From Candidatus Iainarchaeum sp. (lineage in GTDB: Archaea; Micrarchaeota; Micrarchaeia; Anstonellales; Bilamarchaeaceae): 64,000 nucleotides of DNA. The position numbers were made by a program, and so were the translations under genes. Shown here one piece after another: positions 5,740 through 22,116 of the stretch. The DNA lies in assembly GCA_028714535.1 (NCBI GenBank), contig JAQTME010000001.1, positions 69,955 through 133,954 of the forward strand, read 5' to 3'. The notes beneath the pieces are model-generated. The model was not told the DNA's origin and ran no database searches. It saw only the letters and a list, made by a program, of their open reading frames with translations. Within the stretch, counting starts at the first letter, position 1. Each line of letters starts with the position of its first letter.

Positions 5740-6882
5740 ATGCAGGACTTCACGGTCACCCCATGGGAAGTGAGCGGCGACATAGACTATGACAGGCTTG
5801 TCAGGCAGTTCGGCACCAGCAGGATAGACGACAACCTCCGCAGCCGGATGAAGGCCGCATGCGGCGAGTTCCACCCGATGCTCAGGCGCGACTTCGTGTT
5901 CTCGCACCGCGACCTCAACCTGGTCCTGGACGACCACGAGAAGGGGAAGGGGTTCTTCCTCTACACCGGCCGCGGGCCGAGCAAGGGCATGCACATAGGG
6001 CACCTGGTCCCGCTCATCTTCACGAAATGGCTGCAGGAGAAATTCAAGGTCAACCTGTACATCGAGATAACCGATGACGAGAAGTTCCTCTACCGGCGCG
6101 AATACTCATGGAAGGACATCGGCGAGAGCGCGCACGACAACATCCTGGACATAGCCGCGGTGGGGTTCGACCCGCAGCGGACATTCATATTCAGGGACAG
6201 CGAATACGTGAAGAACGTCTATCCGCTGCTGCTGAGGACGGCGAGGAAGATAACCGGCTCGACCGTGAAGGCGGTGTTTGGATTTGATGATTCGACCAAC
6301 ATCGGGCTCTCGTTCTACCCGGCATACCAGGTCATACCCTCGTTCTTCGAGAAGAAGCGGTGCCTGATACCCTGCGCCATAGATCAGGACCCCTATTGGC
6401 GTGTGCAGAGGGACGTGGCCGAAGGGCTTGGGTTCCACAAGACCGCCGCCATACATACGAAATTCCTCCCCCCGCTGCAGGGCGTGAGCGGCAAGATGAG
6501 CTCGTCCGCAGGCCAGGAAACGGCGATATTGCTGACGGACGACGAGAAGGCGGTGAAGAACAAGATAAACAGGTACGCGTTCTCGGGCGGCAGGGCGACC
6601 ATTGAGGAGCACAGGAGGCTCGGCGGCAATCCGGACATAGACGTGCCCTACCAATGGATGAAGATACTTTTCGAGCCTGATGATAAGAAGCTGAGAACGG
6701 TGCACGACGACTACCTCGCGGGCAGGCTGCTCACAGGCGAGCTGAAGGCCATGCTCATAGACCGCATAAACTCGTTCCTCAAGGGCCACAGGGAGAAAAA
6801 GAAGAAGGCGGAGAAGGAAATCGAATCCTTCATGTACAAGGGAAAGCTCGCGAAGGAGATGTGGAGCCGCACCTACGAGTGA
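5740..6882 (+). CDS. trpS: tryptophanyl-tRNA synthetase
   Basis: 380 aa. Class I HIGH-like motif (TGRGPSKGMHIGH) and KMSKS-like motif (KMSSS). Confidence 0.85.
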   Translation: MQDFTVTPWEVSGDIDYDRLVRQFGTSRIDDNLRSRMKAACGEFHPMLRRDFVFSHRDLNLVLDDHEKGKGFFLYTGRGPSKGMHIGHLVPLIFTKWLQEKFKVNLYIEITDDEKFLYRREYSWKDIGESAHDNILDIAAVGFDPQRTFIFRDSEYVKNVYPLLLRTARKITGSTVKAVFGFDDSTNIGLSFYPAYQVIPSFFEKKRCLIPCAIDQDPYWRVQRDVAEGLGFHKTAAIHTKFLPPLQGVSGKMSSSAGQETAILLTDDEKAVKNKINRYAFSGGRATIEEHRRLGGNPDIDVPYQWMKILFEPDDKKLRTVHDDYLAGRLLTGELKAMLIDRINSFLKGHREKKKKAEKEIESFMYKGKLAKEMWSRTYE

Positions 6883-7529
6883 TGAGCCTTGAGATGGCTG
6901 CCGGGGGGCTGCAACAGCGCTTCTATGGCCTCAAAGAGGAGTGGTTTGCTCTCTTTCGTGAGGCTGGCGTAAAATGAAGCCACCTTGCCCCAGCGGATGC
7001 TGCCCATCACATCATTTACCTTGGCGAATCCGCCGTATGCCAGGACGCGGGTCGCGTTGGCCGGCGCGTATGCATGGAAATACTTGACCCCTTCATCTAT
7101 TTTGTCGATCAGGGCTGCCAGCGTAAGCAGGCTTCCGATTTTCCTGCACCTGAACTCCTCTGCCACCACCAGGTCAAGGACCTCTGCGGCTGGCGGCTTG
7201 TGCACGGTGATGTGCTCGGCAGAAAGCTTGAACAGTTTGACTTCTTTTACTATCCCTGCTGCCGCGGGGAACCTCCTGATGCCGACCAGGCCGGCCACCT
7301 GGCCAGCTACTTCGGCTACCTCGTAGTTGCGCTTATGCGCTGTTTTTTGAATGTTGCCAAAGCGGTAGGCCGCCAGCTCCCTCTCATAAAGCTGGGTTGC
7401 AATCTCCGGAAGCGGTGAGGGCACCTTGAAACTTTTGTTGAGAAGCGTACTGCAGCTGGCGGCGTCCCTGGGCTCGAATTTCCTTAACGTCACTGTTACG
7501 CCCGTCTTAAGCCTGAATTCTCTCACCAT
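6873..7529 (-). CDS. GNAT family N-acetyltransferase
   Basis: C-terminal 218 aa of the listed ORF (start MVREFRLK… at 7529). Acetyl-CoA-binding motif RCRKIGSLLTLAAL. The upstream 100 codons of the ORF look non-coding. Confidence 0.5.
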   Translation of the reverse strand: MVREFRLKTGVTVTLRKFEPRDAASCSTLLNKSFKVPSPLPEIATQLYERELAAYRFGNIQKTAHKRNYEVAEVAGQVAGLVGIRRFPAAAGIVKEVKLFKLSAEHITVHKPPAAEVLDLVVAEEFRCRKIGSLLTLAALIDKIDEGVKYFHAYAPANATRVLAYGGFAKVNDVMGSIRWGKVASFYASLTKESKPLLFEAIEALLQPPGSHLKAHHS

Positions 7530-7592
7530 TGGATGCACCTCAAGTAATGTTATGCTAAATAAGAATATGTGGGCGTATGATTTTAAATACCT

Positions 7593-8051
7593 GTGATGGG
7601 AAGGGAGGGCATGCGAACGAGGAAAATGAAGACCGGGACTCCGATGCCGAAGGCATTGGCATGCGGCATGCTGGAAGACGAAGGCCGCGCATTGTTCCTG
7701 GTGCGCAGGGACGAACATGGAACGGAGCGCATCGAATTGCCCTGCGTGCTCGTGCCCTCGGGGCGGAGCCCGTTCGCAGAGATAAAGGCCGAATTCGCCC
7801 GCCAGACAGGGATAGACGGGCAGGTGCACGAGATAATACTTGAGGGCAGGTACAACGCCGGCACAAGGAAGAGGAAAATCTGGGTTCCGTGCCTTGTTTT
7901 CCAGGTTACGGCACGCGAGAGGCGCGCGAAACCATCCGGGGGATTCTCAGGTTTCAGATGGCTTCCGCTCGAAGAGGCGAAAAAACAGAGATTGGGGCGC
8001 AATGCCGAATGGCTCCTGCGCAGTCATGCCAGCCTGAACTTGAAGCCGTAG
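7593..8051 (+). CDS. NUDIX-fold protein with a degenerate Nudix box
   Basis: Gx5Ex7-like segment SGRSPFAEIKAEFARQTGIDG at the expected position. The REUXEE residues are not conserved. Confidence 0.4.
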   Translation: MMGREGMRTRKMKTGTPMPKALACGMLEDEGRALFLVRRDEHGTERIELPCVLVPSGRSPFAEIKAEFARQTGIDGQVHEIILEGRYNAGTRKRKIWVPCLVFQVTARERRAKPSGGFSGFRWLPLEEAKKQRLGRNAEWLLRSHASLNLKP

Positions 8052-8431
8052 TGGATGAGCCCCTCCGGGTCGTCCTTCTGTATCATCCTGAAGACCTGCT
8101 CCACGCGGGTGCCGATTTTCACGTCCTTCTTGTGCGCGTCCACTATCTGCGCGGTGAGCTTGGCGCCTTCGTCCAGCTCAACGATGGCCAGGAGGTAAGG
8201 CACCTGGTCCTCGAAGCCCTCGGGCGGCGCTGTCACCTCGGTGAACGAGTAGACCTTCCCCTTGCCGGAATACTTGAACTCCACGAGCTTGCCCTTGCGC
8301 CTGCATTTCGGGCAGATGGAGCGTTTCGGGAAGTAGTGCTTGCCGCACGTTTCGCATTTGACGCCCAGCAGCCTGTACCTTTCCGGGATCCTTCTCCATG
8401 TGAGCGGTATCGATTCCTTCATGTGCATCAC
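8024..8431 (-). CDS. DUF35-type Zn-ribbon/OB-fold protein (thiolase/HMG-CoA synthase partner family)
   Basis: CETCGK…CPKCRRKG zinc ribbon followed by an OB-fold region. This is the family normally encoded beside archaeal thiolase/HMGCS. Confidence 0.7.
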
Positions 8432-9072
8432 TTCCTGGTCTTGGCGTAATCTTCCTTGAACTTTGCTATGCCCTTGTCAGTGAGCTGGTGTTTGAACATG
8501 TCGTCGAACACCGCGGCCGGGACAGTGGCTATATGCGCGCCGAGCTTCGCGGCCTCGACGACGTGCTTGACAGAGCGGACCGAGGCCACGATGACTTCTG
8601 TCTTGTACCCGTAGGCGCAGAATATCTGCATTATCTCGGCCACCAGCTTCATGCCGTCCTCTGAGATGTCGTCGAGCCGGCCCACGAACGGGGAGACGTA
8701 GGCCGCGCCTGCCTTTGCAGCGAGCAGCGCCTGCGCAGGCGAGAAAACCAGCGTCACGTTGGTCTTTATGCCCTTGCCGCTGAGGACGCGGACGGCCTTC
8801 ATGCCCTCCTTTGTCATCGGGATTTTCACGACCACGTTGGGCGCCCATTTGGCGAACTCAACGCCCTCGCCCACCATGCCATCGACGGTGTCGGCGATGC
8901 CCTCCACGCTTATGGGCCCCTTGACGATTTTGGCTATCTCCTGTATGACCGTCCTGTGGTCGCGGCCCTCCTTCATTATGAGGGTGGGGTTGGTCGTCAC
9001 GCCGTCGCACAGGCCCAGCTCCACGGCCCTCTTTATCTGCTCGACATTGGCAGTGTCCATGAAGAATTTCAT
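8428..9072 (-). CDS. transaldolase / fructose-6-phosphate aldolase (short, MipB/TalC type)
   Basis: 214 aa. [14 protein letters not shown]…GVTTNP and a Schiff-base Lys region VKIPMT. Confidence 0.85.
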
Positions 9073-9104
9073 AAGGAGATATCTATCCTGAAGGTTTTAA
9101 GCGA

Positions 9105-10082
9105 CTACTTTTTCCGCTTCAGGGCACCCCGCACGGCTTTTGCTATGCCTGCGGCGTCAAGACCGTATTTCTTATAGAGCTCTGAGCAGCTGCCGGTCTC
9201 GCCGAAGCCGTTCATGCCCACGCGCCTGAGCACGGCCGGGCAACTGGATTCCGCAAGCACTTCCGCGATGGCGCTTCCCAGCCCGCCATCGACCTGATGG
9301 TCCTCTGCGCTCACCAGAACGCCGCATTTTTTGGCATAGGCGAGGATGCATACCCTGTCTATGGGCTTTATGGTGTGCATGTCGATCACCGCCGCGCCTA
9401 TACCCTCCTTCTTCAGTTCCTCTGCAGCCTTCAGGGACTCGTAGACCTGCAGGCCGCATGCGAATATTGCAGCGTCGCTGCCTTCGCGGCAGACGTTCGC
9501 CTTTCCGACTGTGAACGGCGTGTCGGGCGTGGTGAACACAGGCGCGTTCTCGCGCGATGTGCGGATGTAAACCGGGGTTTTCAGCGCCGCGGCCGCGTGG
9601 GTCGCCTTCCTGGCCTCTTCCATGTCGGCCGGTGCGATCACTGTCATGTTCGGCAGCGCGCGCATCATGGCCATGTCCTCGAGCACCTGGTGGGATGCGC
9701 CGTCAGGCCCCACGCTCAGGCCGGTGTGCGACGCGTGGATTTTCACATTCACGTCGTTGTAGCAGATTGAGACGCGTATCTGGTCGAAGTTCCTGCCGGG
9801 CGAGAACGCCCCGAACGCAGAGATGAACGCCATCTTGCCGCAGGACGCGATGCCCGCAGCCACGCCTGCCATGTTCTGCTCCGCAACGCCGACCTGCACG
9901 AAGCGTTCCGGGAATTTCTCTGCGAACCAGTGCGTCCTGCTGGACTCTGAAACGTCGGCTGAGACCGCCCAGACGTTCCTGTCCCGTTCGCCCAGCTCGG
10001 CAAGCGCCTTGCCGAAGCCGTCGCGGCTGCTTTTCTTGGCCAGGGCAGGGGAGAACAGGTCCGGCGCGAGCTTGACTGTCAT
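9105..10082 (-). CDS. transketolase, C-terminal (pyrimidine-binding) subunit
   Basis: 325-aa split-Tkt C-section. Its start overlaps the N-subunit stop (ATGA). Confidence 0.85.
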   Translation of the reverse strand: MTVKLAPDLFSPALAKKSSRDGFGKALAELGERDRNVWAVSADVSESSRTHWFAEKFPERFVQVGVAEQNMAGVAAGIASCGKMAFISAFGAFSPGRNFDQIRVSICYNDVNVKIHASHTGLSVGPDGASHQVLEDMAMMRALPNMTVIAPADMEEARKATHAAAALKTPVYIRTSRENAPVFTTPDTPFTVGKANVCREGSDAAIFACGLQVYESLKAAEELKKEGIGAAVIDMHTIKPIDRVCILAYAKKCGVLVSAEDHQVDGGLGSAIAEVLAESSCPAVLRRVGMNGFGETGSCSELYKKYGLDAAGIAKAVRGALKRKK

Positions 10083-10924
10083 GCCATCGCCTCCAGTCTT
10101 TTCCTCTGCTCATCAAGCTCCTTCAGGGCCTGGGCAGCCTCTTCGGGATTGGGGGTCTTGCCATGCCACCCGAATTTCCCTTCCATGAATGACACGCCTT
10201 TTCCAGGGACTGTCTTCGCGATTATCGCGGTCGGCTTCTCGAAATTTTTCCTGGCGGCGTCGAAAGCCCCGAGTATGGCGCCCATGTCGTTGCCGTCTAT
10301 CTCAAGGACGTTCCAGCCGAACGAGCTGAGCTTGGCCGCGAGCGGCTCCAGAGGGAGCACGTCGTCGCTGGTGCCGTCTATCTGGATGTTGTTCCTGTCT
10401 ATTATGGCGGTGAGGTTGCTGAGCTTGTACTTCGCGGCGAGCAGGAGCGCCTCCCAGACCTGCCCCTCGTTCATCTCGCCGTCGCCCATCACGCTGTAGA
10501 CGCGCCAGTTCCTGCCCTCGCGCTTGGACACTATGGCCATGCCCACTGCCATGGAGATGCCCTGGCCGAGCGGGCCCGACGAGTTCTCTATGCCGGGCAG
10601 GGAGCCGCGGTGGGGGTGGCCCTGCAGCGGAGAGCCGAGTTTCCTGAGCGTCATGAGTTTTTCCCTGGGGAAATAGCCGGCGTTGGCGAGCGCTGCGTAA
10701 AGCACGGGGCAGACGTGGCCGTTGGACAGCACGAACCTGTCCCGGTCAGGCCAGTCGGGCTTCTTCGCGTCGTGGCGGAGCACGCCGAAGTAAAGCGCTG
10801 CGAATATGTCCGCGAGACCGAGGGAGCCGGCCGGGTGGCCGCTCTTCGCCTCTGTGAGCATGCGCACTATGTCCTGGCGCATGGTGTTGGCCGAGAGCAT
10901 AAGGGATTTGTTCCGGGCGTTCAT
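10079..10924 (-). CDS. transketolase, N-terminal (TPP-binding) subunit
   Basis: 281 aa. GHPAGSLG…GDGEMNEG TPP-binding motif. Confidence 0.85.
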   Translation of the reverse strand: MNARNKSLMLSANTMRQDIVRMLTEAKSGHPAGSLGLADIFAALYFGVLRHDAKKPDWPDRDRFVLSNGHVCPVLYAALANAGYFPREKLMTLRKLGSPLQGHPHRGSLPGIENSSGPLGQGISMAVGMAIVSKREGRNWRVYSVMGDGEMNEGQVWEALLLAAKYKLSNLTAIIDRNNIQIDGTSDDVLPLEPLAAKLSSFGWNVLEIDGNDMGAILGAFDAARKNFEKPTAIIAKTVPGKGVSFMEGKFGWHGKTPNPEEAAQALKELDEQRKRLEAMA

Positions 10925-11571
10925 GACGGGGCCCCTCCGAGAGCGCGCGCCTTCAGCGCGTCTATGGCGGCTTTGATGTCATCCGCAGCGAATATCGCGC
11001 TGGCCGCTGCGAGCACGTTCGCGCCAGCGGCGTACGCGCCGCGCACTGTGTCAAGGTTCACGCCGCCGTCAACCTCGATGTCGATGGACGGGAATTTCCT
11101 GCGGAGCTGCCGGATTTTCTTTTCCATGGCAGTTATGTAGCTCTGGCCTGAGAAACCTGGATGGACGGTCATGATGAGTATGCGCTGCGCCTTGGAGGCG
11201 AACGGGAGCAGCTTTTCCAGCGGCGTTTCTGGGTTTATCGCGAGCCCGAGCCTGCCGCCGGACTTCTTCACCGCATTTTCAATCGCGTCGAACGAGCGTA
11301 TGGTCTCCACGTGGACGAGGTGCAGGTGAGGGCCAGGGACCTTCGCGATCCACTTCTCAGGCTCCTTCACCATCCAGTGGAACTCGTACTTGGCGTTCTG
11401 CAACGCAGGCACCGCAGCGAGGTCGTCCATGCCGATTGTCCTGTTGGGCACGAACTCGCCGTCCATGATGTCCAGCTGTATCTCCTTCACCAGCCCGTTG
11501 ACCTGGGAGATGCGGCGCAGCAATTCCTCCCTGCTCTTGGCCAAGATAGCTGGTATGACCACTGGCTCCAT
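10921..11571 (-). CDS. rpe: ribulose-phosphate 3-epimerase
   Basis: 216 aa. TIM-barrel Rpe motifs (HLHLVH…, DGGVN). Confidence 0.85.
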   Translation of the reverse strand: MEPVVIPAILAKSREELLRRISQVNGLVKEIQLDIMDGEFVPNRTIGMDDLAAVPALQNAKYEFHWMVKEPEKWIAKVPGPHLHLVHVETIRSFDAIENAVKKSGGRLGLAINPETPLEKLLPFASKAQRILIMTVHPGFSGQSYITAMEKKIRQLRRKFPSIDIEVDGGVNLDTVRGAYAAGANVLAAASAIFAADDIKAAIDALKARALGGAPS

Positions 11572-11757
11572 CCTTAACGCCTCCCAGAAAACGAGCGGGT
11601 GCCCGTAACCTGATTTGCCTGGGGATTTATATAAAGATTGTGATTGCAGCCGCCCCTGCGGCCCGCCCTGCCGGGACGCGCCCCATTGGGGCGCAGGTTT
11701 TTGGTTGTTTATTGGTTTTCCACCAATAATTAAAAATCATGCCCGAGAAAGGAAAGC

Positions 11758-11979
11758 ATGAAAATCGACTTGAATGACGTGGTGCACGTGCAGGAGACAG
11801 CCCTTACCATAAGGGGGTCCAGGAGGCGGACGACCGTGCCTGGCGAAATCGTGAGGTTCCTGAAGCTCAAGGACGGCGAGCGCATACGCTGGGCGCTCCT
11901 CAGGAACGGCACGCTCATAGTTTCTGTCGCCACGGAAGCGCGTGGCAGGCACAGCACCAGGAAACAGGCAAAAGCATGA
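11758..11979 (+). CDS. AbrB/MazE/SpoVT-type swapped-hairpin DNA-binding protein
   Basis: 73 aa. …RTTVPGEIVRFLKLKDGERI… resembles the swapped-hairpin fold. Its stop overlaps the start of the substrate-binding-protein gene. Confidence 0.45.
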   Translation: MKIDLNDVVHVQETALTIRGSRRRTTVPGEIVRFLKLKDGERIRWALLRNGTLIVSVATEARGRHSTRKQAKA

Positions 11980-13022
11980 ATGCCGCCAGCACGCTGATTG
12001 CCTGCCTCGCCTGCTTCGCGCTTCTCATGGGCTGCATATTCCTGCAGTTCCAGGGAAGCGGCGGCCAGACAGGGAAGGAAGAGGTGAGGATAGGGTATTT
12101 CCCGAACATGCTCCACGGCCAGGCACTGGTGGGCTGCGCCAATGGCGCGTTCCAGGAGGCATTCGGCCCCAACGTGACGGTGAGGATGGTGCCGTTCAAT
12201 GCCGGGCCCTCGGCCATAGAGGCGCTTTTCGCCGGCGAGCTGGACCTGGCCTACATCGGCCCAAACCCGGCCATCAACGGCTATGTGAAATCAGGCGGGG
12301 ACGCGCTCTGCATAATCGCAGGAGGGGCGAGCGGCGGGGCCGTGCTCGTGGTGCGCAATGATTCCGGCATCAGCAGCGACGCTGATTTCGCAGGCAAGAC
12401 ACTCGCCAGCCCACAGCTCGGCAACACCCAGGACGTTGCGCTGCGCAGCTACATACAGAACGCGGGCCTGAAGATAGGCGAGGGCCCTGGCGGAGTGAGG
12501 GTCATCCCCACCGCCAACCCGGACATCCTGCTCCTCTTCCAAAAAAAGGAGATAGACGGAGCGTGGGTTCCGGAGCCATGGGGGGCACGCCTGGTGCAGG
12601 AGGGTGGCGGCAGGATTTACATTGACGAGCGGGAACTGTGGCCGGACGGAAAGTTCGTAACGGCGAACGTGATCGCGAGCAAGGAGTTCATGGGCAGGCA
12701 TCCGGACCTGGTGAAGCGGTTCCTTGAGGCCCACGTGGAGCTCACCAGGTGGATAAACGGCCACCCTGAGGAGGCAAAGGCGCTGATAAACGGGCAGATA
12801 AGGAACATCACGTCCAAGGCACTCGCGCCGGAAGAGATGGACGCCGCCTTCTCGCGGTGCGATATGACCTATGACCCTGTGAAAAGCTCGCTGGCCAAAT
12901 CCGCTGACGACGCCTACGCGCTCGGCTTCCTCGGCGCTGAGAAGCCGGACCTTTCCGGGATCTACAGCCTTTCCCTGCTTAACGAGGTGCTGCGGGAAAA
13001 GGGCCTGGAGGAGATAGGATGA
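11976..13022 (+). CDS. ABC transporter substrate-binding lipoprotein, NMT1/THI5 (SsuA/TauA/ThiY-like) family
   Basis: Lipobox (LLMGC) then a periplasmic-binding-protein type 2 fold resembling NMT1/THI5. First gene of an SBP-ATPase-permease set with 4-bp overlaps. Confidence 0.7.
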   Translation: MNAASTLIACLACFALLMGCIFLQFQGSGGQTGKEEVRIGYFPNMLHGQALVGCANGAFQEAFGPNVTVRMVPFNAGPSAIEALFAGELDLAYIGPNPAINGYVKSGGDALCIIAGGASGGAVLVVRNDSGISSDADFAGKTLASPQLGNTQDVALRSYIQNAGLKIGEGPGGVRVIPTANPDILLLFQKKEIDGAWVPEPWGARLVQEGGGRIYIDERELWPDGKFVTANVIASKEFMGRHPDLVKRFLEAHVELTRWINGHPEEAKALINGQIRNITSKALAPEEMDAAFSRCDMTYDPVKSSLAKSADDAYALGFLGAEKPDLSGIYSLSLLNEVLREKGLEEIG

Positions 13023-13834
13023 ACCGGCCAGATGTGGAAAGCCGCGCGGATAAGATCAGGCTCGAGGGGGTGCATAAGGGGTTTCCCATGGGCCAGGACC
13101 GCAAGGGCAGGCTCCTTGCCCTTCAAAACGTCGACATTGCCATAAAGCAGGGTGAATTCGTGTGCATCGTGGGGCCGACCGGCTGCGGCAAGACCACAAT
13201 ACTCAACATCATCGCGGGGCTGGCAAAGCCTGACCGCGGGCGGGTGCTGGTCGACGGCAGGGAAGTGGGCGGCCCGGCCCCGGACAGGGTGGTGATGTTC
13301 CAGGAGGCAGCGCTTTTTCCCTGGCTCACGGTGATTGAGAACGTGGAGTTCGGCCTGGAGATGCAGGGCGTGGGAAGGGCGGAGAGGCGCAAACGCGCGG
13401 AGAAGCACCTGAGCCTGGTGCGGCTTTCGCACTTCAGGGATTCTTTCGTGCACGAGCTTTCGGGCGGCATGAAGCAGAGGGTGGCGCTCGCCCGGGCGCT
13501 GGCAATGGACCCGGATATCCTGCTGATGGACGAGCCGTTCGCGGCCCTGGACGCCCAGACCAGGGACAGGTTCCACCTGGAGCTCCAGCAGATATGGATG
13601 AAGACGAAGAAGACGATTTTGTTCGTGACGCACAATGTGAGCGAGGCGGTCTGCCTCGGGGACAGGGTGCTGGTGCTGAGTTACCGGCCGGGGCGGATAA
13701 AAAAGGAATTCACGGTGGACCGCCCACGCCCCAGGGAGTACCGCACGACGCCGGAGCTCGCATGCATCACTGCAATGGTGCTTGACGAGCTCAGGGGAGA
13801 GGTCGACAAGGCGGCAAAGGAGGAGATGGGATGA
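13019..13834 (+). CDS. ABC transporter ATP-binding protein (SsuB/TauB-like)
   Basis: Walker A GPTGCGKTT, signature LSGGMKQRV and Walker B ILLMDEPFAALD. Confidence 0.85.
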   Translation: MNRPDVESRADKIRLEGVHKGFPMGQDRKGRLLALQNVDIAIKQGEFVCIVGPTGCGKTTILNIIAGLAKPDRGRVLVDGREVGGPAPDRVVMFQEAALFPWLTVIENVEFGLEMQGVGRAERRKRAEKHLSLVRLSHFRDSFVHELSGGMKQRVALARALAMDPDILLMDEPFAALDAQTRDRFHLELQQIWMKTKKTILFVTHNVSEAVCLGDRVLVLSYRPGRIKKEFTVDRPRPREYRTTPELACITAMVLDELRGEVDKAAKEEMG

Positions 13835-14607
13835 TGCTGGAACGGAGGGGCTTGCGCTTTGCTGCGTTCTGCATCGTGTTAGTGGCAGCATGGCAGCTGG
13901 TCGCCCTGCTCGGCATCTGGCCCCAGTATATCTTCCCGGCGCCTGCTGGCGTCCTCTCAGCGCTCTGGACGGGGATGTCAGATGGGACTTTCCTGCTTGC
14001 TGCGCTTGCAAGCCTGCAGCGCATGCTCATAGGATTCGGAATCGCATTCGCCCTGGGATTCACGCTCGGCGTGGCCATAGCGCGCAGCAGGATTGTTGGG
14101 GATACGGCCGGGCAGCTGGTGCTGGGCCTGCAGACGCTTCCGAGCATATGCTGGCTTCCGCTGGCTGTCCTTTGGTTCGGCCTGAACGACGCGGCCATAT
14201 TGTTCGTGGTTGTGGCCGGCGCGGTCGGGTCCATAACCATGGCCATCAGCTCTGGCATAGCGCACGTGCCGCCGCTTTTCATAAACGCGGCAAGGACGAT
14301 GGGCGCTTCAGGATGGAACCTCTATTCAAAGGTGATATTCCCTGCTGCGCTCCCGGCGATAATAGCCGGCGCCCGTCAGGGCTGGTCGTTCGCATGGCGC
14401 TCGCTCATGGCAGGGGAGCTCCTGTTCTTCAGTGTGGGGCTGGGGCAGCTGCTCCAGATCGGGAGGGAGCTGAACGACATAAACCAGGTGGCGGCGGTGA
14501 TGCTCGCCATCCTTGCCGTCGGGCTCCTGACCGAAAACCTGGTGTTCGCATCCCTGGAAAGGGCAGTGAAAAGGAAGCGGGGGCTGGAGCAGGAGTCCGG
14601 TTATTAA
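13831..14607 (+). CDS. ABC transporter permease (SsuC/TauC-like, BPD_transp_1)
   Basis: 258 aa with about six TM helices. EAA-like loop AARTMGASGW. Confidence 0.8.
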   Translation: MMLERRGLRFAAFCIVLVAAWQLVALLGIWPQYIFPAPAGVLSALWTGMSDGTFLLAALASLQRMLIGFGIAFALGFTLGVAIARSRIVGDTAGQLVLGLQTLPSICWLPLAVLWFGLNDAAILFVVVAGAVGSITMAISSGIAHVPPLFINAARTMGASGWNLYSKVIFPAALPAIIAGARQGWSFAWRSLMAGELLFFSVGLGQLLQIGRELNDINQVAAVMLAILAVGLLTENLVFASLERAVKRKRGLEQESGY

Positions 14608-14630
14608 ACCGTTGCGGCATATTTTACCCC

Positions 14631-15836
14631 GTGAAACTGAATCCGGGAGAGCTCAAGCTGGACCTTTACTGCAACGGGATGCAGCTGGACCGGAGCTGCG
14701 CGATTGACGAGGACGGATGCGGGATTCTCAGTACGCGCGGCGGGCTTGGCAGCGGGCTGGAACTGATTTTGCCCGGGGGCGTGCACGCCAACGTGCCCGT
14801 AACCGAAGAGTTCGCAAAAAAATCGCCCTATGTGCTGCACAAGGAGGCTGGCGGATACGTGGTAAGGAAGGGCGGCGTGGCTGTCTGCGGGGTCGCGCTT
14901 CTTCCACGCCCTGCGTTCTACGACAGGAAAACCGCCACGGGCAAGCCCATGGGCCGCATCGGCATCCTCCAGGGAACCTATCTGGGCATTTATCCGGCAG
15001 GGCTCTGCGATTTCTGGGGGATGGGGCCGCGCATGAACTGCAGGTTCTGCTCGGTGGGACTGAACCTTGGCGCGAACGAGGAGGCTGGCAAGACCGTCAT
15101 GGACGTGGTGGAAACCGCGCTGGCTGCGCGGGATGAATGCGGCGTCACCTTCGTCCATTTCAACTCGGGCTTTTGCAGGAACGGCGATGAGCTGGGCAAG
15201 CTGGAGCCCTACATAAAGGCCATAAAGGAGAAGACCGGCCTTCTGGTCGGGGTGCAGGCGATACCGTCCGCAGACCTGTCGGCCTATGACCGGCTGAAGA
15301 AGATGGGCGTGGACCACGTCTCATTCTGCATGGAACTTTTCGGGCCCGCGGAATTCAGGAAGACCTGCCCCGGCAAGGCGAAATACCTGGGGCAGGAACG
15401 ATTCCTGAAAGCCATCGGATACTGCACAAGGATTTTCGGCAAAGGAAAGGTGGCCGGGGAAGTGATTGCCGGCCTTGAGAGCCCTGGCAACACCATAAGG
15501 GCCATAGAAACATTCGCGAAGATGGGCGCGGTGGCCACTGTGTGCGTGTTCAGGCCATGCAAGGGAACTGATTATCAAGACCTGCCGCCTCCGGCGTACG
15601 AAGACATGGTCCCTGTTTTCAGGCGCGTTTACACAGCATGCCTGGACTATGGCATCCCGTTCGGCATCGCACCGAACATAAAGGTGAGCATAGTGATGCT
15701 CCCTGAAGAATGCGCCTGCCTTGTCCCGGAGATTACGCTCGGGCAAAGGCTCCAGCTGGCGAAACTCCAAGCCATGAAATTCGCCTTCCAGGCATATTTC
15801 AGGGCAGTCCTCGCCCTCAAATCAGGTAAGCTGTGA
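14631..15836 (+). CDS. radical-SAM-like TIM-barrel protein with a non-canonical Cys cluster (Cx10CxxC)
   Basis: Cys cluster CDFWGMGPRMNCRFC followed by Gly-rich (HFNSGF) and barrel-like segments. Start is GTG at 14631 or ATG at 14679. The ORF-track N-terminal extension (from 13782) overlaps the permease and is rejected. Confidence 0.4.
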   Translation: MKLNPGELKLDLYCNGMQLDRSCAIDEDGCGILSTRGGLGSGLELILPGGVHANVPVTEEFAKKSPYVLHKEAGGYVVRKGGVAVCGVALLPRPAFYDRKTATGKPMGRIGILQGTYLGIYPAGLCDFWGMGPRMNCRFCSVGLNLGANEEAGKTVMDVVETALAARDECGVTFVHFNSGFCRNGDELGKLEPYIKAIKEKTGLLVGVQAIPSADLSAYDRLKKMGVDHVSFCMELFGPAEFRKTCPGKAKYLGQERFLKAIGYCTRIFGKGKVAGEVIAGLESPGNTIRAIETFAKMGAVATVCVFRPCKGTDYQDLPPPAYEDMVPVFRRVYTACLDYGIPFGIAPNIKVSIVMLPEECACLVPEITLGQRLQLAKLQAMKFAFQAYFRAVLALKSGKL

Positions 15837-16695
15837 CTATCCCCAGGTGCGCGGCGGCCATCAGCAGGTACATGTGCAGCCAGGACGGGTGGTTTTCCCC
15901 GGATGCCAGGCGCTTTGGGTCCCGGATTATGGTATGCGCGATATACGCCCCCCATAGCGAGAGGAGGGAAAGGAACGCCACTGCCGGAGGAAGGATGCCT
16001 GCCGCCGCCCCCCAGGCGAAAAGCAGGAACGGGAGCGTGAGGAACGGCGCCATTATCCAGGCGGCCGTCCGTACGCCGTAGATTATCGGGAGCGTCCTGG
16101 CGCCGTAGCGCCTGTCCCCTTCCATGTCGGCGAAATCCTTGGTGCTCGCCGCGCCCAGAAGGAAAATGCCGAGTATGGACCCCATAAGCCACGGGGCTGG
16201 CGAGAGGGGGGTTGCGAAAACAGACCAGCCTGCCACCAGCAGCAGGAGGCCGCGTGGGAGCGCGATGGCCGCATTGGCGATCCATCCATGGTTTTTCAGG
16301 CGCACGGCCGGCCAGGAATAAAGTATCGTGAGGAGCGCGGCGGTTCCGGCGAGCAGCATGAAGGCCGTGCCAACCATGGCTGCGAAAATGAGGGCGACCG
16401 CATAGGCCGCCGCGGCGAGCGTGGTGGCTTCGCCGGCTGTTGCCCTTCCCGATGGCAGCGGACGAGTTGGCTTGTTTATCTTATCCAATTTCACATCGCA
16501 CGCTTGGTTGAATGAGTTGGACGCCCCGTTGAGGAGCATTGCGCTTGCTGAAGCGAGGGCGAGCGCAGGTATTGCCCCGGCGTTTAATACGATGCCATTT
16601 GCAACGGCCGAGGCGATGGCCCCTGAGAGAATGCCGGTCGCTGGCGGAAGGAGGGTGGGGAGCCTGAAAAGTTCGATGAGTTCGTATGGTTTCAC
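15817..16695 (-). CDS. UbiA family prenyltransferase (DGGGP-synthase-like)
   Basis: 292 aa, polytopic. NQACDVKLDKIN matches Nx3Dx3D. A second Asp-rich motif (DFADMEGD) is present. Confidence 0.8.
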   Translation of the reverse strand: MKPYELIELFRLPTLLPPATGILSGAIASAVANGIVLNAGAIPALALASASAMLLNGASNSFNQACDVKLDKINKPTRPLPSGRATAGEATTLAAAAYAVALIFAAMVGTAFMLLAGTAALLTILYSWPAVRLKNHGWIANAAIALPRGLLLLVAGWSVFATPLSPAPWLMGSILGIFLLGAASTKDFADMEGDRRYGARTLPIIYGVRTAAWIMAPFLTLPFLLFAWGAAAGILPPAVAFLSLLSLWGAYIAHTIIRDPKRLASGENHPSWLHMYLLMAAAHLGIVTAYLI

Positions 16696-16743
16696 GGGGT
16701 GATTGAACTGCGCATAAATATAAAGGCTGACGCAGATAAATGC

Positions 16744-19700
16744 TGGATGGACGGGCGGGTTTTGGCGATTTTGATTGCAGCTGCCGCACTGCTACTGATT
16801 TATTTTGTCTATACCGGGGCAACGGCCCAGAAAAAAGCGGACAGGACCGTGATCGTCCTTGGCTTTGACGGCATGGACGCGCGCCTTGCCGAGCAATGGA
16901 TGGACGAAGGCAAGCTGCCGAACCTTGCACGGCTGCGGGCCATGGGAACCTATTCGCGCATCCAGACCACGACCCCTGCTGATACCCCGGTAGCCTGGAC
17001 CACGGTTGCGACCGGGCTCAACCCCGGGAAGCACAATGTCTTGGACTTTCTTGACCGCGACCCTGCAACGTACATGCCACGGATTGCCCTGATAAAAAAG
17101 GAGGAGACAGGAGGCGGAAAGCCGCTCGTGTTCAACCTGAAGCAGGGGGAGCCCATATGGAAGACCGTGAGCGACAATGGGGGCAGGAGCACTGTGATAA
17201 CGGTCCCTGTGACCTTCCCTGCAGAAGATTTCGATGGCAAGATGTTATCTGGCCTAGGAACGCCCGACATACGCGGGACCTGGGGAACGTTCACGGCCTA
17301 TGTGGAAGGCGGGGAGGGCGGGGACAGCCTCATGGGCGGAAACTTCGTGCCCGTGGAATTCGAAGGGGGAGTTGCAAGCACCGAGCTCCGCGGCCCGAAG
17401 GAAATGGCGATAAACATGACCATCACCCGCACTGCGGATGGTGTGAAACTGTCATTTGGGGGGAAGGAATACGCCCTTAAGCAGGGGGAATGGAGCGAAT
17501 GGGCGGACATACAGTTCGAGGCCAATCCGTTCGTGAAGGTCAAGGGAACCGGCAGGTTCTACCTGATTAGCACGGACCCGCTCAGCCTTTACCTCATGCC
17601 GGTCAGCCTGGACCCCAGGGACCCGTTCTTCAGGATTTCCACGCCGGAATGGTATTCGCGCCAGGTCGCAGAGGACGATGGGCTCTACAAGACCGTTGGC
17701 TGGGCTGACGACACCTGGGCGCTCAATGACGACGCCATAGACGAGCAGGTGTTCCTCCAGGACGCCTACAGGACCCTGGAGCAGAAGGAGAAGCTCGTGC
17801 TTGATGAGATGGAAGAAAAGCCGGACCTCCTCATGGCGGTTTTCTATCAGACCGACACCGTCCAGCACATGTTCTACAGGTACATGGACCCGGAAAATCC
17901 GCTCTATGGCAGCATAAGCCCGGAAGAGAAGGAAAGGCACAAGGACGAGATACTGCGCGTCTACCAGAGGATGGACGAGGCTGCCGGCAAGGTCATGAGC
18001 AAAGCTGGCCAGGACGACGTCATAATCGTCATGAGCGACCATGGCTTCAACCCTTTCAGGAAAGCAGTCAATCTGAACACCTGGCTGGCAAATAACGGGT
18101 TCCTTGCAAAAAAGCCCGGCGCAAACACATCCTATTACAAGCTCAACAGCCTCTACGGCGAGCAGGGGCTTTTCTGGAACGACGTCCTGCTGAATGAGAC
18201 GCAGGCCTATTCCATGGGCCTTGGCAACATCTACATAAACCTGAAAGGAAGGGAAGCCCAGGGGGCTGTGGGTGTGGAACGGTATGACGCGGTCCGCGAC
18301 CGGATAATCAGGCAGTTGAAGGAGCTCCGGGACCCTGAGACAGGGGAGAAAGTGATCGCAGACGCCCAGAAGCGCGAGGATTTGTATTCGGGCCCCTATA
18401 TGGATAACGCCGCGGACATCGTGGTCTCGTTCAACCCTGGCTACCGTGTGTCGTGGCAGACTTCGCTGGGCGGGGTGCCGCCGCACGTTATTGAACCGAA
18501 CCTCAAGAAATGGTCCGGGGACCACTGCACCGTGGACCCGAAGCAGACCGAAGGGGTGTTCTTCGTGAACCGCGTTATGGGTCTTGACGGAGAGCCTTCG
18601 CTCCAGGATGTGAACCCCACGCTCCGCAGCCTTCTCGGCCTCCCGGCCAATGAAAGCCTGGACGGCATGTCGATGCTCCGCGATGGCAATGAAACCGCAG
18701 GCCCAGAAGCCGGCTGCAAGGACTGCAACGTCCTTGTCATAACCATGGACGACGTCCGTGCCGACTATCTTCCTCTTTTCAACCCCAAGGCGCTTGCGGA
18801 AACCCCGAACCTGGAGGCGCTCGCTTCAAAGAGCGTGCTGTTCACCAACGCGCACACGGCATTCACATTCACCTGCCCGTCGCACACCATCATGATGACC
18901 GGCAGGTATTTCACGGACGATGACCGCCAGACCAGCCTTCCCCGGATTCTGAAGGGCAACGGGTATGCCACCGGCGCCACGGTCGGGTTCGCCGGCCTGC
19001 GGCAGGAGGAGTGCCCCACCGGCGCAATGTTCGGCTACTACGATGAAAGCAGCACGGCTATAGGTTTCGGAGAGCGTGACGATAATTCTGCCGCCCAGGC
19101 CATGACATGGCTGCAGAACCACAGCAAGGGCAGGTTCTTCTTCTGGCTGCATCTTTATGACGCGCATCCCTTCGGGAAAGCAGCCAACGCCAGCGCGACC
19201 GGCAGCTATTCCGAGAGGATAGGGCAGATGGATGGCCACATTGGGGAGGTGCTCGCATTATTGGACAGGCAAAACCTAACCAACAAAACCATCGTGGTGG
19301 TCCTATCGGACCATGGGATGGGGGCGGATTTCGCCCACCCCGCCAATAACAGGCAGCTCTACGACCTGGCGACCCACGTTCCGATGATGATATACGTCCC
19401 TGGCGGGGCGCCAGCCAGGGCCGAGGGTCTTACGAGCACGGTGGACCTGGCGCCGACCCTCGCCGCGCTTCTTGGCGTGCACTACGCCGATGCAGATGGG
19501 GCTGCACTGTTAGATGCGGACGGCACCCTGGTTCCGGGGTCCGCAAGAGACCACGTATTTGCGACTTACCGCGCGCTCCAGGTGGTGCAGCACATGGTAC
19601 GCACCAATGAGTGGAAGTATATTGTGACCATGATTGAAAACGGCAACACCAGTTATGAGCTCTATAACCTTGCCCAAGACCCCGCCGAGAGCCGGAACCT

Positions 19701-19890
19701 CTATGGCAGCCAGCCGGAGATTGAAGCGCGGTTGAGAGGGCTCCTGCAGGGATACCCGACGGCAATGCCGGGCAGGCTCCGGGGCCTGGGCATGCCTGGG
19801 GCCATGACTGGTTGGTACGGTACCACCACTGCCACCCCAATGAGCAACCAGACCAGGGACGAGCTCCGCTCGCTGGGGTACATAAATTAG
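16744..19890 (+). CDS. membrane-anchored double alkaline-phosphatase-superfamily protein (N-terminal PglZ/NPP-like domain, C-terminal sulfatase-like domain)
   Basis: N-terminal TM anchor. Domain 1: GFDGMDA…TTPADTPVAWTT nucleophile-Thr motif. Domain 2: DDVRADYL…TFTCPSHTIMMTGRY, a sulfatase CxPxR signature with H in place of R, and DHGM later. The 16699 ATG leaves only 3 bp to the divergent UbiA start, so 16744 is preferred. Confidence 0.65.
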   Translation, partial: WMDGRVLAILIAAAALLLIYFVYTGATAQKKADRTVIVLGFDGMDARLAEQWMDEGKLPNLARLRAMGTYSRIQTTTPADTPVAWTTVATGLNPGKHNVLDFLDRDPATYMPRIALIKKEETGGGKPLVFNLKQGEPIWKTVSDNGGRSTVITVPVTFPAEDFDGKMLSGLGTPDIRGTWGTFTAYVEGGEGGDSLMGGNFVPVEFEGGVASTELRGPKEMAINMTITRTADGVKLSFGGKEYALKQGEWSEWADIQFEANPFVKVKGTGRFYLISTDPLSLYLMPVSLDPRDPFFRISTPEWYSRQVAEDDGLYKTVGWADDTWALNDDAIDEQVFLQDAYRTLEQKEKLVLDEMEEKPDLLMAVFYQTDTVQHMFYRYMDPENPLYGSISPEEKERHKDEILRVYQRMDEAAGKVMSKAGQDDVIIVMSDHGFNPFRKAVNLNTWLANNGFLAKKPGANTSYYKLNSLYGEQGLFWNDVLLNETQAYSMGLGNIYINLKGREAQGAVGVERYDAVRDRIIRQLKELRDPETGEKVIADAQKREDLYSGPYMDNAADIVVSFNPGYRVSWQTSLGGVPPHVIEPNLKKWSGDHCTVDPKQTEGVFFVNRVMGLDGEPSLQDVNPTLRSLLGLPANESLDGMSMLRDGNETAGPEAGCKDCNVLVITMDDVRADYLPLFNPKALAETPNLEALASKSVLFTNAHTAFTFTCPSHTIMMTGRYFTDDDRQTSLPRILKGNGYATGATVGFAGLRQEECPTGAMFGYYDESSTAIGFGERDDNSAAQAMTWLQNHSKGRFFFWLHLYDAHPFGKAANASATGSYSERIGQMDGHIGEVLALLDRQNLTNKTIVVVLSDHGMGADFAHPANNRQLYDLATHVPMMIYVPGGAPARAEGLTSTVDLAPTLAALLGVHYADADGAALLDADGTLVPGSARDHVFATYRALQVVQHMVRTNEWKYIVTMIENGNTSYELYNLAQDPAESRNLYGSQPEIEARLRGLLQGYPTAMPGRLRGLGMPGAMTGWYGTTTATPMSNQTRDELRSLGYIN

Positions 19891-19961
19891 CGCGCGGTCG
19901 GATTTCTGGGCACAAAATTCCAAAAAATTCCGTCAAAAAGCGTTGGCGCGCGAAAAACTGG

Positions 19962-19985
19962 GAATAGGCTTTTAAACATTTACTG
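19962..19985 (+). promoter_or_regulatory. putative archaeal BRE/TATA promoter for the speH-like gene
   Basis: GGCTTTTAAACATTTAC lies about 30-38 nt upstream of the ATG at 20010 in an AT-rich intergenic gap. Confidence 0.3.
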
Positions 19986-20009
19986 GATTTAGTATTTCCA
20001 AGATGTAAA

Positions 20010-20438
20010 ATGGCGAAACTCGAACACATACATATCACGGTAAACGCCAGGATCGACCCTAATTTTAAGGCACTTCCAAAGGACGATGCGGGGCGTTTTG
20101 TGGATAAACTGCTGAAAGCCATCAACATGAAGCCGCTCGGCCCGCTCAACTGGGCTGACGCCGAGGACCTTGACTTCCCGGGACAGAGCTTCGTGCAGAT
20201 GATAACCACGAGCCACTGCTCGCTGCACTTCTTCGCGCACCCCAACGGCGACAAGGAGATATACTTCGACCTTTACTCGTGCAAGCCCTTCGACCCCGAG
20301 GAGGTCGTGAGGCTGCTGGATGAGAAGTTCGGCCTGCGAGACTGGCACGGCACGCTCTACACCAGGGCGACTGACAGCGCGCCGGAAGTCCGGATGATAG
20401 GGAGCCAGGCCAGGGAAGTAATAGTGGCGCGGAACTGA
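20010..20438 (+). CDS. speH: pyruvoyl-dependent S-adenosylmethionine decarboxylase proenzyme family (SpeH-like; arginine decarboxylase paralog possible)
   Basis: 142 aa. TTSHCSLHFFAHP aligns to the ESHxSxHTxPE self-cleavage region of archaeal/bacterial class 1 AdoMetDC. A downstream YSCKPF resembles the conserved TCG region. Confidence 0.65.
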   Translation: MAKLEHIHITVNARIDPNFKALPKDDAGRFVDKLLKAINMKPLGPLNWADAEDLDFPGQSFVQMITTSHCSLHFFAHPNGDKEIYFDLYSCKPFDPEEVVRLLDEKFGLRDWHGTLYTRATDSAPEVRMIGSQAREVIVARN

Positions 20439-20937: not shown

Positions 20938-22116
20938 CTAGAGGTTGCGGTAGATGTGCACCACTGAGGTGGCGCCGCTGCCGCCGACGTTCTGGCTCAG
21001 CCCTATGTGCGCGCCCTTCACCTGGCGGCCTTCTGCCTCGCCGCGGAGCTGCCAGACAACCTCCACTGCCTGCTTCACGCCGGTGGCGCCGACGGGGTGG
21101 CCGCAGGCCTTGAGCCCGCCGGATGTGTTAATCGGGATTTCACTGCCAAGGGCGGTCTTCCCTTCCAGGGTGGCCTTCCCGCCCTCGCCCCTCTTGAAGA
21201 AGCCAAGGTCCTCTATGGCCATTATCTCCGCTATTGTGAAGCAGTCGTGCACTTCCGCGAAATCCATGTCCTTGGGCGTGAGCTGCGCACGCTCGAATGC
21301 CTTCTTCGCGGCGACCTGGGTTGCGCGCAGCCCGGTCATGCTCTCGCGCGAATGCAATGCGATCGCATCGCTGGCCTGGGCGCTGGAGAGGAGCTCTATC
21401 GGCTTTTTCACGTAGCTGGGCGCCACGTCAAGGGGCGCGAGCACCACCGCTGCAGCGCCGTCGGTTATCGGCGAGCAGTCGAAGACCTTGAGCGGGTCTG
21501 CTATCATCTTGGAGTCCATCACCGTCTCTATGGATATCTCCTTCTGGAACTGCGCGTATTTGTTCTTGGCGCCGTGCTTGTGGTTCTTGACCGCGACAGC
21601 AGCCATCATCTCCTCTGTCGTTCCGTACTCATGCATGTGCCTGCGCGCCATGAGCGCGTATATGGCAGGGAAGGTAGCGCCGAGGAAAAGCTCCCATTCC
21701 TGGTCGCCTGCGCCCCCGAGTATGTCGCTGACTGTGTTCACGCCCAGGTCGGTCATCTTCTCCACACCGCCGACGACGACCAGGTCGTGCATGCCGCTGG
21801 CCACTGCCATGATGCCCTGCCTGAGGGCAAGGCTGCCTGAGGCGCACGCGCCCTCGACACGGGTGATAGGGATGGGATTGAGCCCCATGTAGTCTGCGAG
21901 CAGGCCGCCGATGTGCTCCTGGCCTATGAGCCGGCCTGACGCCATGGTGCCGACGAAGCCGCCGTCTATCCTGTCCCCTGATATGCCCGCGTCGGCTATG
22001 GCCTTGACGCCTGCCTCGACCACCAGGTCGCGGAAGCCGGTTTCCCAGTGCTCGCCGAAGGCGGTCATGCCCGCCCCTATGATTGCGACTTTTCTCATAA
22101 GGATTACCGTCAGCAT
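20938..22116 (-). CDS. thiolase (acetyl-CoA C-acyltransferase, archaeal/SCP-x type)
   Basis: 392 aa. Thiolase active-site regions (…EGACASGS… Cys nucleophile, C-terminal GHPVGATG, NVGGSGATS). Confidence 0.8.
   Translation of the reverse strand: MLTVILMRKVAIIGAGMTAFGEHWETGFRDLVVEAGVKAIADAGISGDRIDGGFVGTMASGRLIGQEHIGGLLADYMGLNPIPITRVEGACASGSLALRQGIMAVASGMHDLVVVGGVEKMTDLGVNTVSDILGGAGDQEWELFLGATFPAIYALMARRHMHEYGTTEEMMAAVAVKNHKHGAKNKYAQFQKEISIETVMDSKMIADPLKVFDCSPITDGAAAVVLAPLDVAPSYVKKPIELLSSAQASDAIALHSRESMTGLRATQVAAKKAFERAQLTPKDMDFAEVHDCFTIAEIMAIEDLGFFKRGEGGKATLEGKTALGSEIPINTSGGLKACGHPVGATGVKQAVEVVWQLRGEAEGRQVKGAHIGLSQNVGGSGATSVVHIYRNL

Follow-up and report, generated by a model that had tools for sequence, protein, structure and literature searches.

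We analysed a 64,000-nt stretch of a genome assigned to Candidatus Iainarchaeum sp. (Micrarchaeota; contig JAQTME010000001.1, positions 69,955 to 133,954), referred to below as the window, in which the genes of an ATP-binding cassette (ABC) importer are followed on the same strand by a gene for a radical S-adenosylmethionine (SAM) protein. A six-frame list of open reading frames (ORFs) agreed with an earlier reading of this DNA, the original prediction, as to the order of an AbrB-like gene, a substrate-binding protein (SBP), an ATPase, and a permease, with an ATGA overlap of 4 bp at each of the three junctions between positions 11758 and 14607. The last junction was correctly set apart as well: instead of an overlap, a 23-nt spacer separates the permease gene from GTG 14631, where the radical SAM gene starts. 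Further downstream, the radical SAM gene runs against a convergent gene for a UbiA-superfamily prenyltransferase, which in turn diverges from a gene for a membrane-anchored phosphodiesterase (Table 1). We lean slightly towards reading the interval as two independent units, namely, an importer operon (11758-14607) and a three-gene block made of the radical SAM, UbiA, and phosphodiesterase genes (14631-19890).

Table 1. Features of the importer and radical SAM interval, in window coordinates.
Feature	Coordinates	Strand	Basis and remarks
AT-rich TATA-like box AATAATTAAAAAT	11726..11738	+	Sequence; ~26 nt before the AbrB-like ATG; position inferred
73-aa SpoVT/AbrB-like small protein, putative regulator, first gene of the importer operon	11758..11979	+	ORF, weak profile matches
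NitT/TauT-family SBP, SsuA family, NMT1_2 fold, 348 aa	11976..13022	+	ORF, profiles
ABC importer ATP-binding subunit, 271 aa	13019..13834	+	ORF, PF00005
ABC permease subunit, 258 aa, last gene of the importer operon	13831..14607	+	ORF, PF00528
TATA-like box TTATTAAA, overlapping the permease stop codon	14601..14608	+	~27 nt ahead of GTG 14631; the radical SAM gene may have its own promoter here
401-aa radical SAM enzyme, NF045502	14631..15836	+	Profile, alignment, predicted fold, NCBI record
Cluster-binding loop C126-x10-C137-x2-C140, CDFWGMGPRMNCRFC	15006..15050	+	Sequence; Cys conservation
292-aa UbiA-superfamily prenyltransferase	15817..16695	-	ORF, profiles; convergent with the radical SAM gene, 20-nt 3' overlap
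AT-rich box ATAAATATAAAG between the divergent UbiA and phosphodiesterase starts	16714..16725	.	Sequence; putative shared bidirectional promoter
Membrane-anchored phosphodiesterase/NPP and sulfatase-fold fusion	16747..19890	+	ORF opens at GTG 16699

The radical SAM protein and its cysteine loop

The radical SAM protein was assigned to GTG 14631 rather than to ATG 14679, because its homologues conserve an N-terminal NPGxLKLDLxC segment upstream of ATG 14679 and because an NCBI record (MDD5339709.1, annotated as 'hypothetical protein' of Candidatus ainarchaeum sp.) holds exactly the resulting 401-aa sequence; no NCBI record was found for a 385-aa version. The conserved segment includes a near-invariant cysteine, C14, in an alignment of 34 diverse homologues from about ten phyla that are 50-91% identical, on which the residue conservation given below for this protein is also based. 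The length of about 385 residues first proposed is thus superseded, and with the 401-aa start the cysteine cluster is preceded by about 125 residues, not by the 100 or so reckoned before.

Although it had been thought that the protein could not be placed in a named family, it matched the NCBIfam model NF045502 ('variant_rSAM') over residues 56-336 with 206.9 bits, against a cut-off of 125, and shares with that family the long C-x(n)-C-x2-C loop; the family bears only a generic name and has no assigned function. The Pfam radical SAM model PF04055 stayed below threshold for the window protein (20.8 bits against 29.5), and a precomputed match to it exists for most homologues. The model of the MSMEG_0568 family, TIGR04043, gave 108.6 bits against a cut-off of 303.7 (E 3e-31) and aligned residues 30-335 with model positions 15-325; the alignment covers almost the full length, N-terminal domain included, and points to a paralogue of the same architecture. 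In contrast to that family, which supplies the radical SAM component of the Nit1C nitrilase cluster, the window gene has none of the Nit1C partners (nitrilase, GNAT, AIR-synthase-like protein, flavoprotein) detected nearby. Judged by these profiles, the protein belongs to the catalogued but functionally blank NF045502 family and is paralogous to the MSMEG_0568 proteins, whose function is just as blank. Homologues numbered more than 2,800, in at least 402 GTDB species, the closest relatives being encoded in Micrarchaeota metagenome-assembled genomes. Our literature searches found no description of an NF045502-family enzyme, of an MSMEG_0568-family enzyme, or of a pairing of such a radical SAM protein with UbiA, and the titles and abstracts of the literature on CX10CX2C motifs yielded nothing on an NF045502-family enzyme.

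The cluster motif had been described as a non-canonical Cx10CxxC, and this description held. It corresponds to CDFWGMGPRMNCRFC at residues 126-140 of the GTG-start protein, from which the canonical CxxxCxxC is absent. C126, C137, and C140 occur without exception in the 34 aligned homologues, and a scan of 120 homologues for loop spacing detected the three in every sequence; across these, the distance from C126 to C137 varies between x8 and x14: 89 sequences have x10 (the search pattern), 19 have x11, 7 have x8, and 1 has x14, the other 4 having escaped the pattern only through a CSLG reading (the one printed example of these is x10). Expanded loops of the QueE type offer a precedent for an insertion between the first and second cysteines, and radical SAM chemistry is tolerated with the CX14CX2C motif of Burkholderia QueE. 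Five more cysteines (C23, C233, C246, C305, and C337) are invariant among the 34 homologues, and at least 90% of the sequences retain C14 and C265. By inspection against established knowledge, we assigned the GxIxGxxE-type SAM-binding motif of strand beta-5 to GEVIAGLE at residues 276-283, in which E277, G281, and E283 are invariant.

Structure prediction, which had been proposed as a check together with cysteine conservation, returned a radical SAM barrel with high confidence (AlphaFold; predicted local distance difference test 91.3, predicted template modelling score 0.91). The model comprises a family-specific N-terminal domain (residues 1-112), a core of the (beta/alpha)6 type, and a long C-terminal helix, and its barrel resembles those of LipA, HydE, ThiH, and BioB, with LipA ranked above the lyases. 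In the same model, C233 lies in beta-4, C246 just past beta-4, C305 in beta-6, and C337 in the last barrel helix; together with C14 and C23, these residues are candidate ligands of one or two auxiliary Fe-S clusters like those of LipA and BioB, at least one of which is probably present. The conserved cysteines of the N-terminal domain are limited to C14-x8-C23, a LipA-like CX4CX5C motif being absent, and no SPASM domain was matched in the protein by Pfam or NCBIfam. Profile, alignment, and predicted fold together mark the protein as a genuine radical SAM enzyme whose cluster motif is non-canonical. Of the two outcomes named in the original prediction as refuting this, a missing barrel core and unconserved cysteines, neither occurred.

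Gene neighbourhoods of the radical SAM family

Gene order around the homologues did not bear out the view that the radical SAM gene ends the importer operon and forms with it an uptake-plus-modification module. The importer lies beside the radical SAM gene only in the window and in a 91%-identical relative (L006), and a protein search across 85 radical SAM loci found the permease only in L006 and the SBP in none, so that the neighbourhood check suggested at the time revealed no conserved link between the two. In two relatives at 75% identity (L007 and L009), the radical SAM, UbiA, and phosphodiesterase genes are kept, and the upstream position is occupied by a surface protein gene or a divergent deaminase gene instead; a further locus (L008) keeps the block and gave no SBP or permease match. 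The converse arrangement was found in another Micrarchaeota genome (GCA_022627495.1, locus L173), which was reached through its 71%-identical SBP. This locus presents the same backbone at 62-85% identity, with transaldolase, split transketolase, and ribulose-phosphate 3-epimerase genes on one strand, then the SBP, ATPase, and permease genes, and after these S-adenosylmethionine (AdoMet) decarboxylase, a 151-aa gene, thiolase, PurF, and PheT. No gene lies there between the permease and AdoMet decarboxylase genes, and a 226-nt spacer (8626-8851) takes the place of the 5.4 kb at 14608-20009 of the window. The stretch encoding the radical SAM protein, UbiA, phosphodiesterase, and sulfatase-fold domain is therefore present or absent as a block. 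Repeats flanking this block, which would mark a mobile insertion, were searched for and none was found beyond short matches at chance level.

The 23-nt spacer is compatible with this separation, since it is accompanied by a TATA-like box, TTATTAAA, and archaeal promoters follow an established position rule for such boxes. An AT-rich box stands at the same distance of ~27 nt in five other Micrarchaeota loci (L001 and L006-L009), in which the upstream genes differ. Because the box in the window sits at archaeal promoter distance, it suggests that the radical SAM gene is transcribed from its own promoter, as a leaderless mRNA. As expected for an archaeon, a sigma-70 promoter scan gave no matches. 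For annotation, the lesson is that a short spacer between genes on the same strand is insufficient to prove an archaeal operon.

The genes conserved alongside the radical SAM gene are instead UbiA and the phosphodiesterase gene downstream of it. When neighbours were sought by de novo ORF clustering and targeted searches, UbiA was the top recurrent one: 17 of 83 non-redundant loci have it directly beside the radical SAM gene, as do 15 of the 59 whose flanks both extend for at least 1.2 kb; gene tables confirmed the adjacency in four of the UbiA-radical SAM loci. Loci with adjacent UbiA belong to Micrarchaeota, Hermodarchaeota/Helarchaeota, Omnitrophota, Planctomycetota, Paceibacterota, Roizmanbacteria, and one actinobacterial metagenome-assembled genome. 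Moreover, the UbiA stop and the radical SAM start overlap by 4 bp in six bacterial loci from four phyla. A convergent gene resembling geranylgeranyl diphosphate synthase abuts the pair in Roizmanbacteria, and in Omnitrophota the operon continues with two BchE/HpnJ-like B12-radical SAM genes and a family 2 glycosyltransferase gene of the polyprenyl-phosphate type. In all, seven loci have BchE/HpnJ-like genes for B12-binding radical SAM proteins next to the variant gene; one of them, L087 (9185-12209), has two in tandem and then a family 2 glycosyltransferase gene.

The window UbiA protein itself matched PF01040 with 124.7 bits against a cut-off of 34.2, and the residues of both Asp-rich motifs of the family (N60, N63, D67, and D71; D187, D190, and D194) do not vary among 30 sequences. 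It remained below the cut-offs of the equivalog models PRK12882 (90.5 against 296), ChlG (108.9 against 313), and PRK12884 (119.5 against 269), and its best PDB matches were chlorophyll a synthase (E 3e-22) and digeranylgeranylglyceryl phosphate (DGGGP) synthase (E 3e-17). As far as these comparisons go, the protein is part of a coherent and so far uncharacterised clade that falls between the chlorophyll and DGGGP synthases. A tetrapyrrole reading, which the ChlG-, BchE-, and AhbD-like neighbours might invite, was rejected, as these are only the nearest named models of broad families and all matches fall below their cut-offs.

The third gene of the block encodes a signal-anchored protein of the alkaline-phosphatase superfamily, which joins a PF01663 type I phosphodiesterase/NPP domain to a sulfatase-fold domain. 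Its likely start is ATG 16747, GTG 16699 probably lying too far upstream. The box ATAAATATAAAG is about 25-27 nt from both this ATG and the UbiA start at 16695 on the minus strand, which suggests a shared bidirectional archaeal promoter. In other Micrarchaeota and Iainarchaeota, the phosphodiesterase half is encoded adjacently as a separate protein of ~685 aa, and of 80 metagenome loci centred on UbiA, 19 have such a protein next to the same UbiA clade, as does L092. The sulfatase-fold domain has T-C-P-S-H (18870-18905, residues ~709-719 of the protein starting at 16747) and its counterpart in L001 (11197-12627) has T-L-P-S-H, so that, compared with the (C/S)-x-P-x-R motif, Thr replaces the Cys or Ser of the formylglycine position and His replaces Arg. 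Thr at this position is typical of the phosphoryl-transfer members of the superfamily, and from these residues both domains are probably phosphoryl-transfer enzymes, not sulfatases.

A fourth recurrent component, here called X, is an orphan polytopic membrane protein of 242-271 aa that matched nothing in Pfam, NCBIfam, or the PDB. X comes after the radical SAM gene in three loci (for example, L003, 11237-12025) and after UbiA in four (for example, L090, 7914-8642), and it lies between UbiA and the radical SAM gene in L095 (1890-2537). Its invariant residues, in the numbering of the first alignment sequence, are E94, M95, T101, G102, G104, and E106, and it also carries an LLxxMNxYV motif.

Two other settings were observed. 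In Acidobacteriota, where UbiA is not adjacent, the radical SAM gene is found near genes for hemerythrin, Crp/Fnr, universal stress proteins, and a LuxR-type regulator with a GAF kinase, as well as a TIGR04053 radical SAM/SPASM gene; in five loci, 10-50 nt separate the hemerythrin-domain gene from the radical SAM gene that follows it. This setting is of the hypoxia type and fits an O2-independent role. In loci of the Coatesbacteria type, a gene for a DUF1858 (ScdA_N-like) protein lies downstream of the radical SAM gene (L003, 12040-12279), and other Coatesbacteria neighbour genes gave no Pfam, NCBIfam, or PDB match. Hemerythrin and DUF1858 domains both occur in Fe-S cluster repair proteins.

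Proposed function and competing readings

In the explanation that we favour, a [4Fe-4S] cluster would be bound through C126, C137, and C140 on the unusually long loop after beta-1, SAM would be cleaved to a 5'-deoxyadenosyl radical inside a barrel like that of lipoyl synthase and biotin synthase, and hydrogen would be abstracted from the substrate. The neighbourhood evidence makes a prenylated membrane compound the candidate substrate or product: the enzyme would act, independently of O2, on a compound that the neighbouring prenyltransferase takes as acceptor or makes as product, either by contributing to acceptor synthesis in a ThiH/MqnE-like manner or by modifying the prenylated product through LipA/BioB-like or tail chemistry. 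We consider such O2-independent chemistry on a prenylated membrane compound likely. Although the proposed working is of the LipA/BioB class, the window protein fell outside LipA, LIAS, LipS2, and BioB in every membership comparison.

Combinations of this kind have partial counterparts among known systems. The futalosine pathway pairs MqnE/MqnC with MqnP and thus also joins a radical SAM enzyme to a UbiA-family prenyltransferase, and the ebo cluster encodes the UbiA-like EboC together with an NPP-type phosphodiesterase of the alkaline-phosphatase superfamily. A wider proposal, which we put forward tentatively as a possibility, is that the radical SAM protein, the UbiA clade, the ~685-aa ecto-phosphodiesterase, and X form an undescribed membrane pathway that remodels or makes a prenylated lipid or a lipid-anchored cofactor without O2 in DPANN, Asgard, candidate phyla radiation (CPR), Omnitrophota, Planctomycetota, and Acidobacteriota lineages. 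Its radical SAM enzyme might then combine a new N-terminal fold with a BioB/LipA-like auxiliary cluster, and sulfur insertion or C-C or C-O bond formation on an isoprenoid-linked substrate would be new to radical SAM families. The known radical SAM enzymes of archaeal lipids are all of the Tes type or the B12 type (bioRxiv 10.1101/2025.10.20.683597).

Several observations weigh against the favoured explanation. UbiA is not adjacent in about 75% of the loci, mostly those of Acidobacteriota, and the radical SAM gene occurs within 6 kb in only 2 of the 80 UbiA-centred metagenome loci, so the link between the two is recurrent, not obligate. Neither the NF045502 family nor the UbiA clade, the phosphodiesterase, or X has a characterised member. 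The case for the auxiliary cluster is built on conservation and secondary-structure position, and the C-terminal helix is weakly amphipathic, with a hydrophobic moment of at most 0.38, for which reason an amphipathic C-terminal membrane anchor was discarded. At the upstream boundary, the radical SAM gene begins only 23 nt past the permease gene on the same strand, no terminator-like site was found at this junction, and read-through co-transcription from the permease may occur.

The same junction, along with the gene order shared by the 91%-identical L006, is what speaks for the model of the original prediction, according to which the importer takes up a pyrimidine- or quinone-type precursor that the radical SAM protein, encoded by the last gene of a common transcript, then modifies. 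We nevertheless regard this model as very improbable: the syntenic L173 has the importer and no radical SAM gene, the 75%-identical relatives and all 80 other radical SAM loci have neither SBP nor permease, and a TATA-like box stands at -27 before the radical SAM gene. Furthermore, the SBP belongs to the SsuA family and not with ThiY or MqnA, no riboswitch was found in 11300-17000, and a homologous Bacillota cassette sits beside ATP-sulfurylase/APS-kinase genes with no radical SAM gene. Even less credible, to the point of being scarcely worth entertaining, is the idea of a maturase resembling the anaerobic sulfatase-maturating enzyme that would form formylglycine in the adjacent sulfatase-domain protein. 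A sulfatase-fold domain is indeed encoded beside the radical SAM gene in Micrarchaeota, the L001 genes even overlapping by 4 bp, but the formylglycine site holds Thr in both the window and L001, the SPASM search was negative, and most radical SAM loci lack a sulfatase gene; this candidate was rejected.

Two readings stand closer to the favoured one. The protein might be a stand-alone LipA/BioB-like enzyme that inserts sulfur or forms a cofactor, with a substrate that is soluble or bound to a protein, and shared anaerobic regulation would account for the adjacent UbiA. The extra invariant cysteines, a weak match to the LipS2 model NF053743 (E 1e-7), and most of the Acidobacteriota loci, which have hemerythrin or DUF1858 genes and no UbiA, would agree with this, whereas the 4-bp UbiA/radical SAM overlaps and the UbiA-X-radical SAM operon of L095 are hard to attribute to regulation alone, the LipS2 score was 31.6 bits against a cut-off of 270, and the N-terminal domain lacks the LipA-like CX4CX5C; on balance we find it unlikely. 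A sub-case of the favoured explanation, which we judge rather improbable, has a ThiH/HydG/CofH/MqnE-like enzyme making an aromatic or cyclic acceptor that UbiA would prenylate, in a minimal O2-independent route to a quinone-like or other prenylated redox lipid. PDB searches with the single protein and with the 34-sequence profile gave marginal matches only, and these were to HydG (E 0.11) and MqnE (E 0.39); the resemblance to the futalosine pathway and the hypoxia-type regulators of Acidobacteriota are likewise consistent with head-group synthesis. Against it, LipA outranks the lyases in the fold comparison, the UbiA protein is nearest to the O-prenylating chlorophyll synthase and DGGGP synthase, not to aromatic C-prenyltransferases, and many CPR and DPANN hosts generally lack respiratory chains.

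If the linkage of the radical SAM gene to UbiA and the phosphodiesterase holds, it would provide a testable context for a family present in at least 402 species-level genomes, mostly of uncultivated anaerobes and including genome-reduced DPANN and CPR lineages. The enzymes that make or alter the isoprenoid compounds of membranes would then include a radical SAM family outside the B12 type, and this would bear on the envelope components that symbionts with small genomes still make. The compact set of radical SAM, UbiA, and phosphodiesterase genes would lend itself to heterologous expression and lipidomics.

The importer operon and flanking genes

The family assignments made earlier for the importer were upheld by Pfam and NCBIfam for its three transport components. 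The SBP, which starts with a signal peptide and carries a lipobox-like LMGC site, matched NMT1_2 (PF13379) with 125.8 bits and NMT1 with 48.8 bits and passed the SsuA-family model TIGR01728 (196.4 bits against 163.5). The ATPase matched ABC_tran (PF00005) with 122 bits, its best NCBIfam models being SaoA and TauB, both below cut-off, and the permease matched BPD_transp_1 (PF00528) with 80.5 bits, with SaoP- and SsuC-like matches below cut-off. The importer thus resembles the SsuABC/TauABC importers of the NitT/TauT type, the ATPase and permease being nearest to SaoA, TauB, SsuC, and NrtB-type proteins, but unlike these it passed no equivalog model. For the small first gene, a similarity of the PrlF/SpoVT-AbrB type was recovered, yet the AbrB-like call is weak, at 21.4 bits against a cut-off of 32, and the PrlF antitoxin models gave 21.4 and 23.7 bits, both below cut-off. 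The AbrB-like gene was also not found in L173. From its position, the box AATAATTAAAAAT is the putative promoter of the importer operon, which would yield a leaderless transcript.

Homologues of the SBP are 55-80% identical from Micrarchaeota to Bacillota, Actinobacteria, and Omnitrophota, and by this measure the importer subfamily is unusually conserved across domains. Two identities were tried for its role and rejected: the Sao transporter (SaoX 64.7 against 300, SaoA 249 against 360, SaoP 121 against 295) and a ThiY/THI5 pyrimidine-precursor binder, for which only the generic Pfam NMT1 model passed. A search of 11300-17000 for a thiamine pyrophosphate or other riboswitch yielded only one chance small nucleolar RNA match (E 0.4), and no thi genes were seen near the importer. 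In the Bacillota homologue of the cassette (L174), ATP-sulfurylase/APS-kinase and FAD-binding protein genes precede the cassette, and 6-phosphogluconate dehydrogenase, glucose-6-phosphate dehydrogenase, and Glucosamine_iso-domain genes follow it; with sulfate-activation genes as neighbours, a sulfur compound is a better candidate than a precursor of thiamine or quinones. With an SsuA-family SBP, no riboswitch found, and such neighbours, the idea of a thiamine-pyrimidine or MqnA/MqnD-type precursor loses its footing, and the substrate is probably a small sulfur- or nitrogen-containing anion.

Divergent from the importer, the minus strand at 8428-11571 carries a non-oxidative pentose-phosphate operon encoding transaldolase/fructose-6-phosphate aldolase, the C and N halves of a split transketolase, and ribulose-phosphate 3-epimerase. 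Pentose-phosphate genes thus adjoin the importer cassette both in the window and in the Bacillota locus. Two ORFs elsewhere in the window, one of 1320 aa (49143-53105, plus strand) and one of 318 aa (6873-7829, minus strand), had no Pfam match at E 1e-5. Directly downstream of the radical SAM block lie an AdoMet decarboxylase-like gene (20010-20438, plus strand) and then a thiolase gene (20938-22116, minus strand). The thiolase may be the entry to a mevalonate pathway, in which case the isoprenoid precursors are perhaps made by the host itself.

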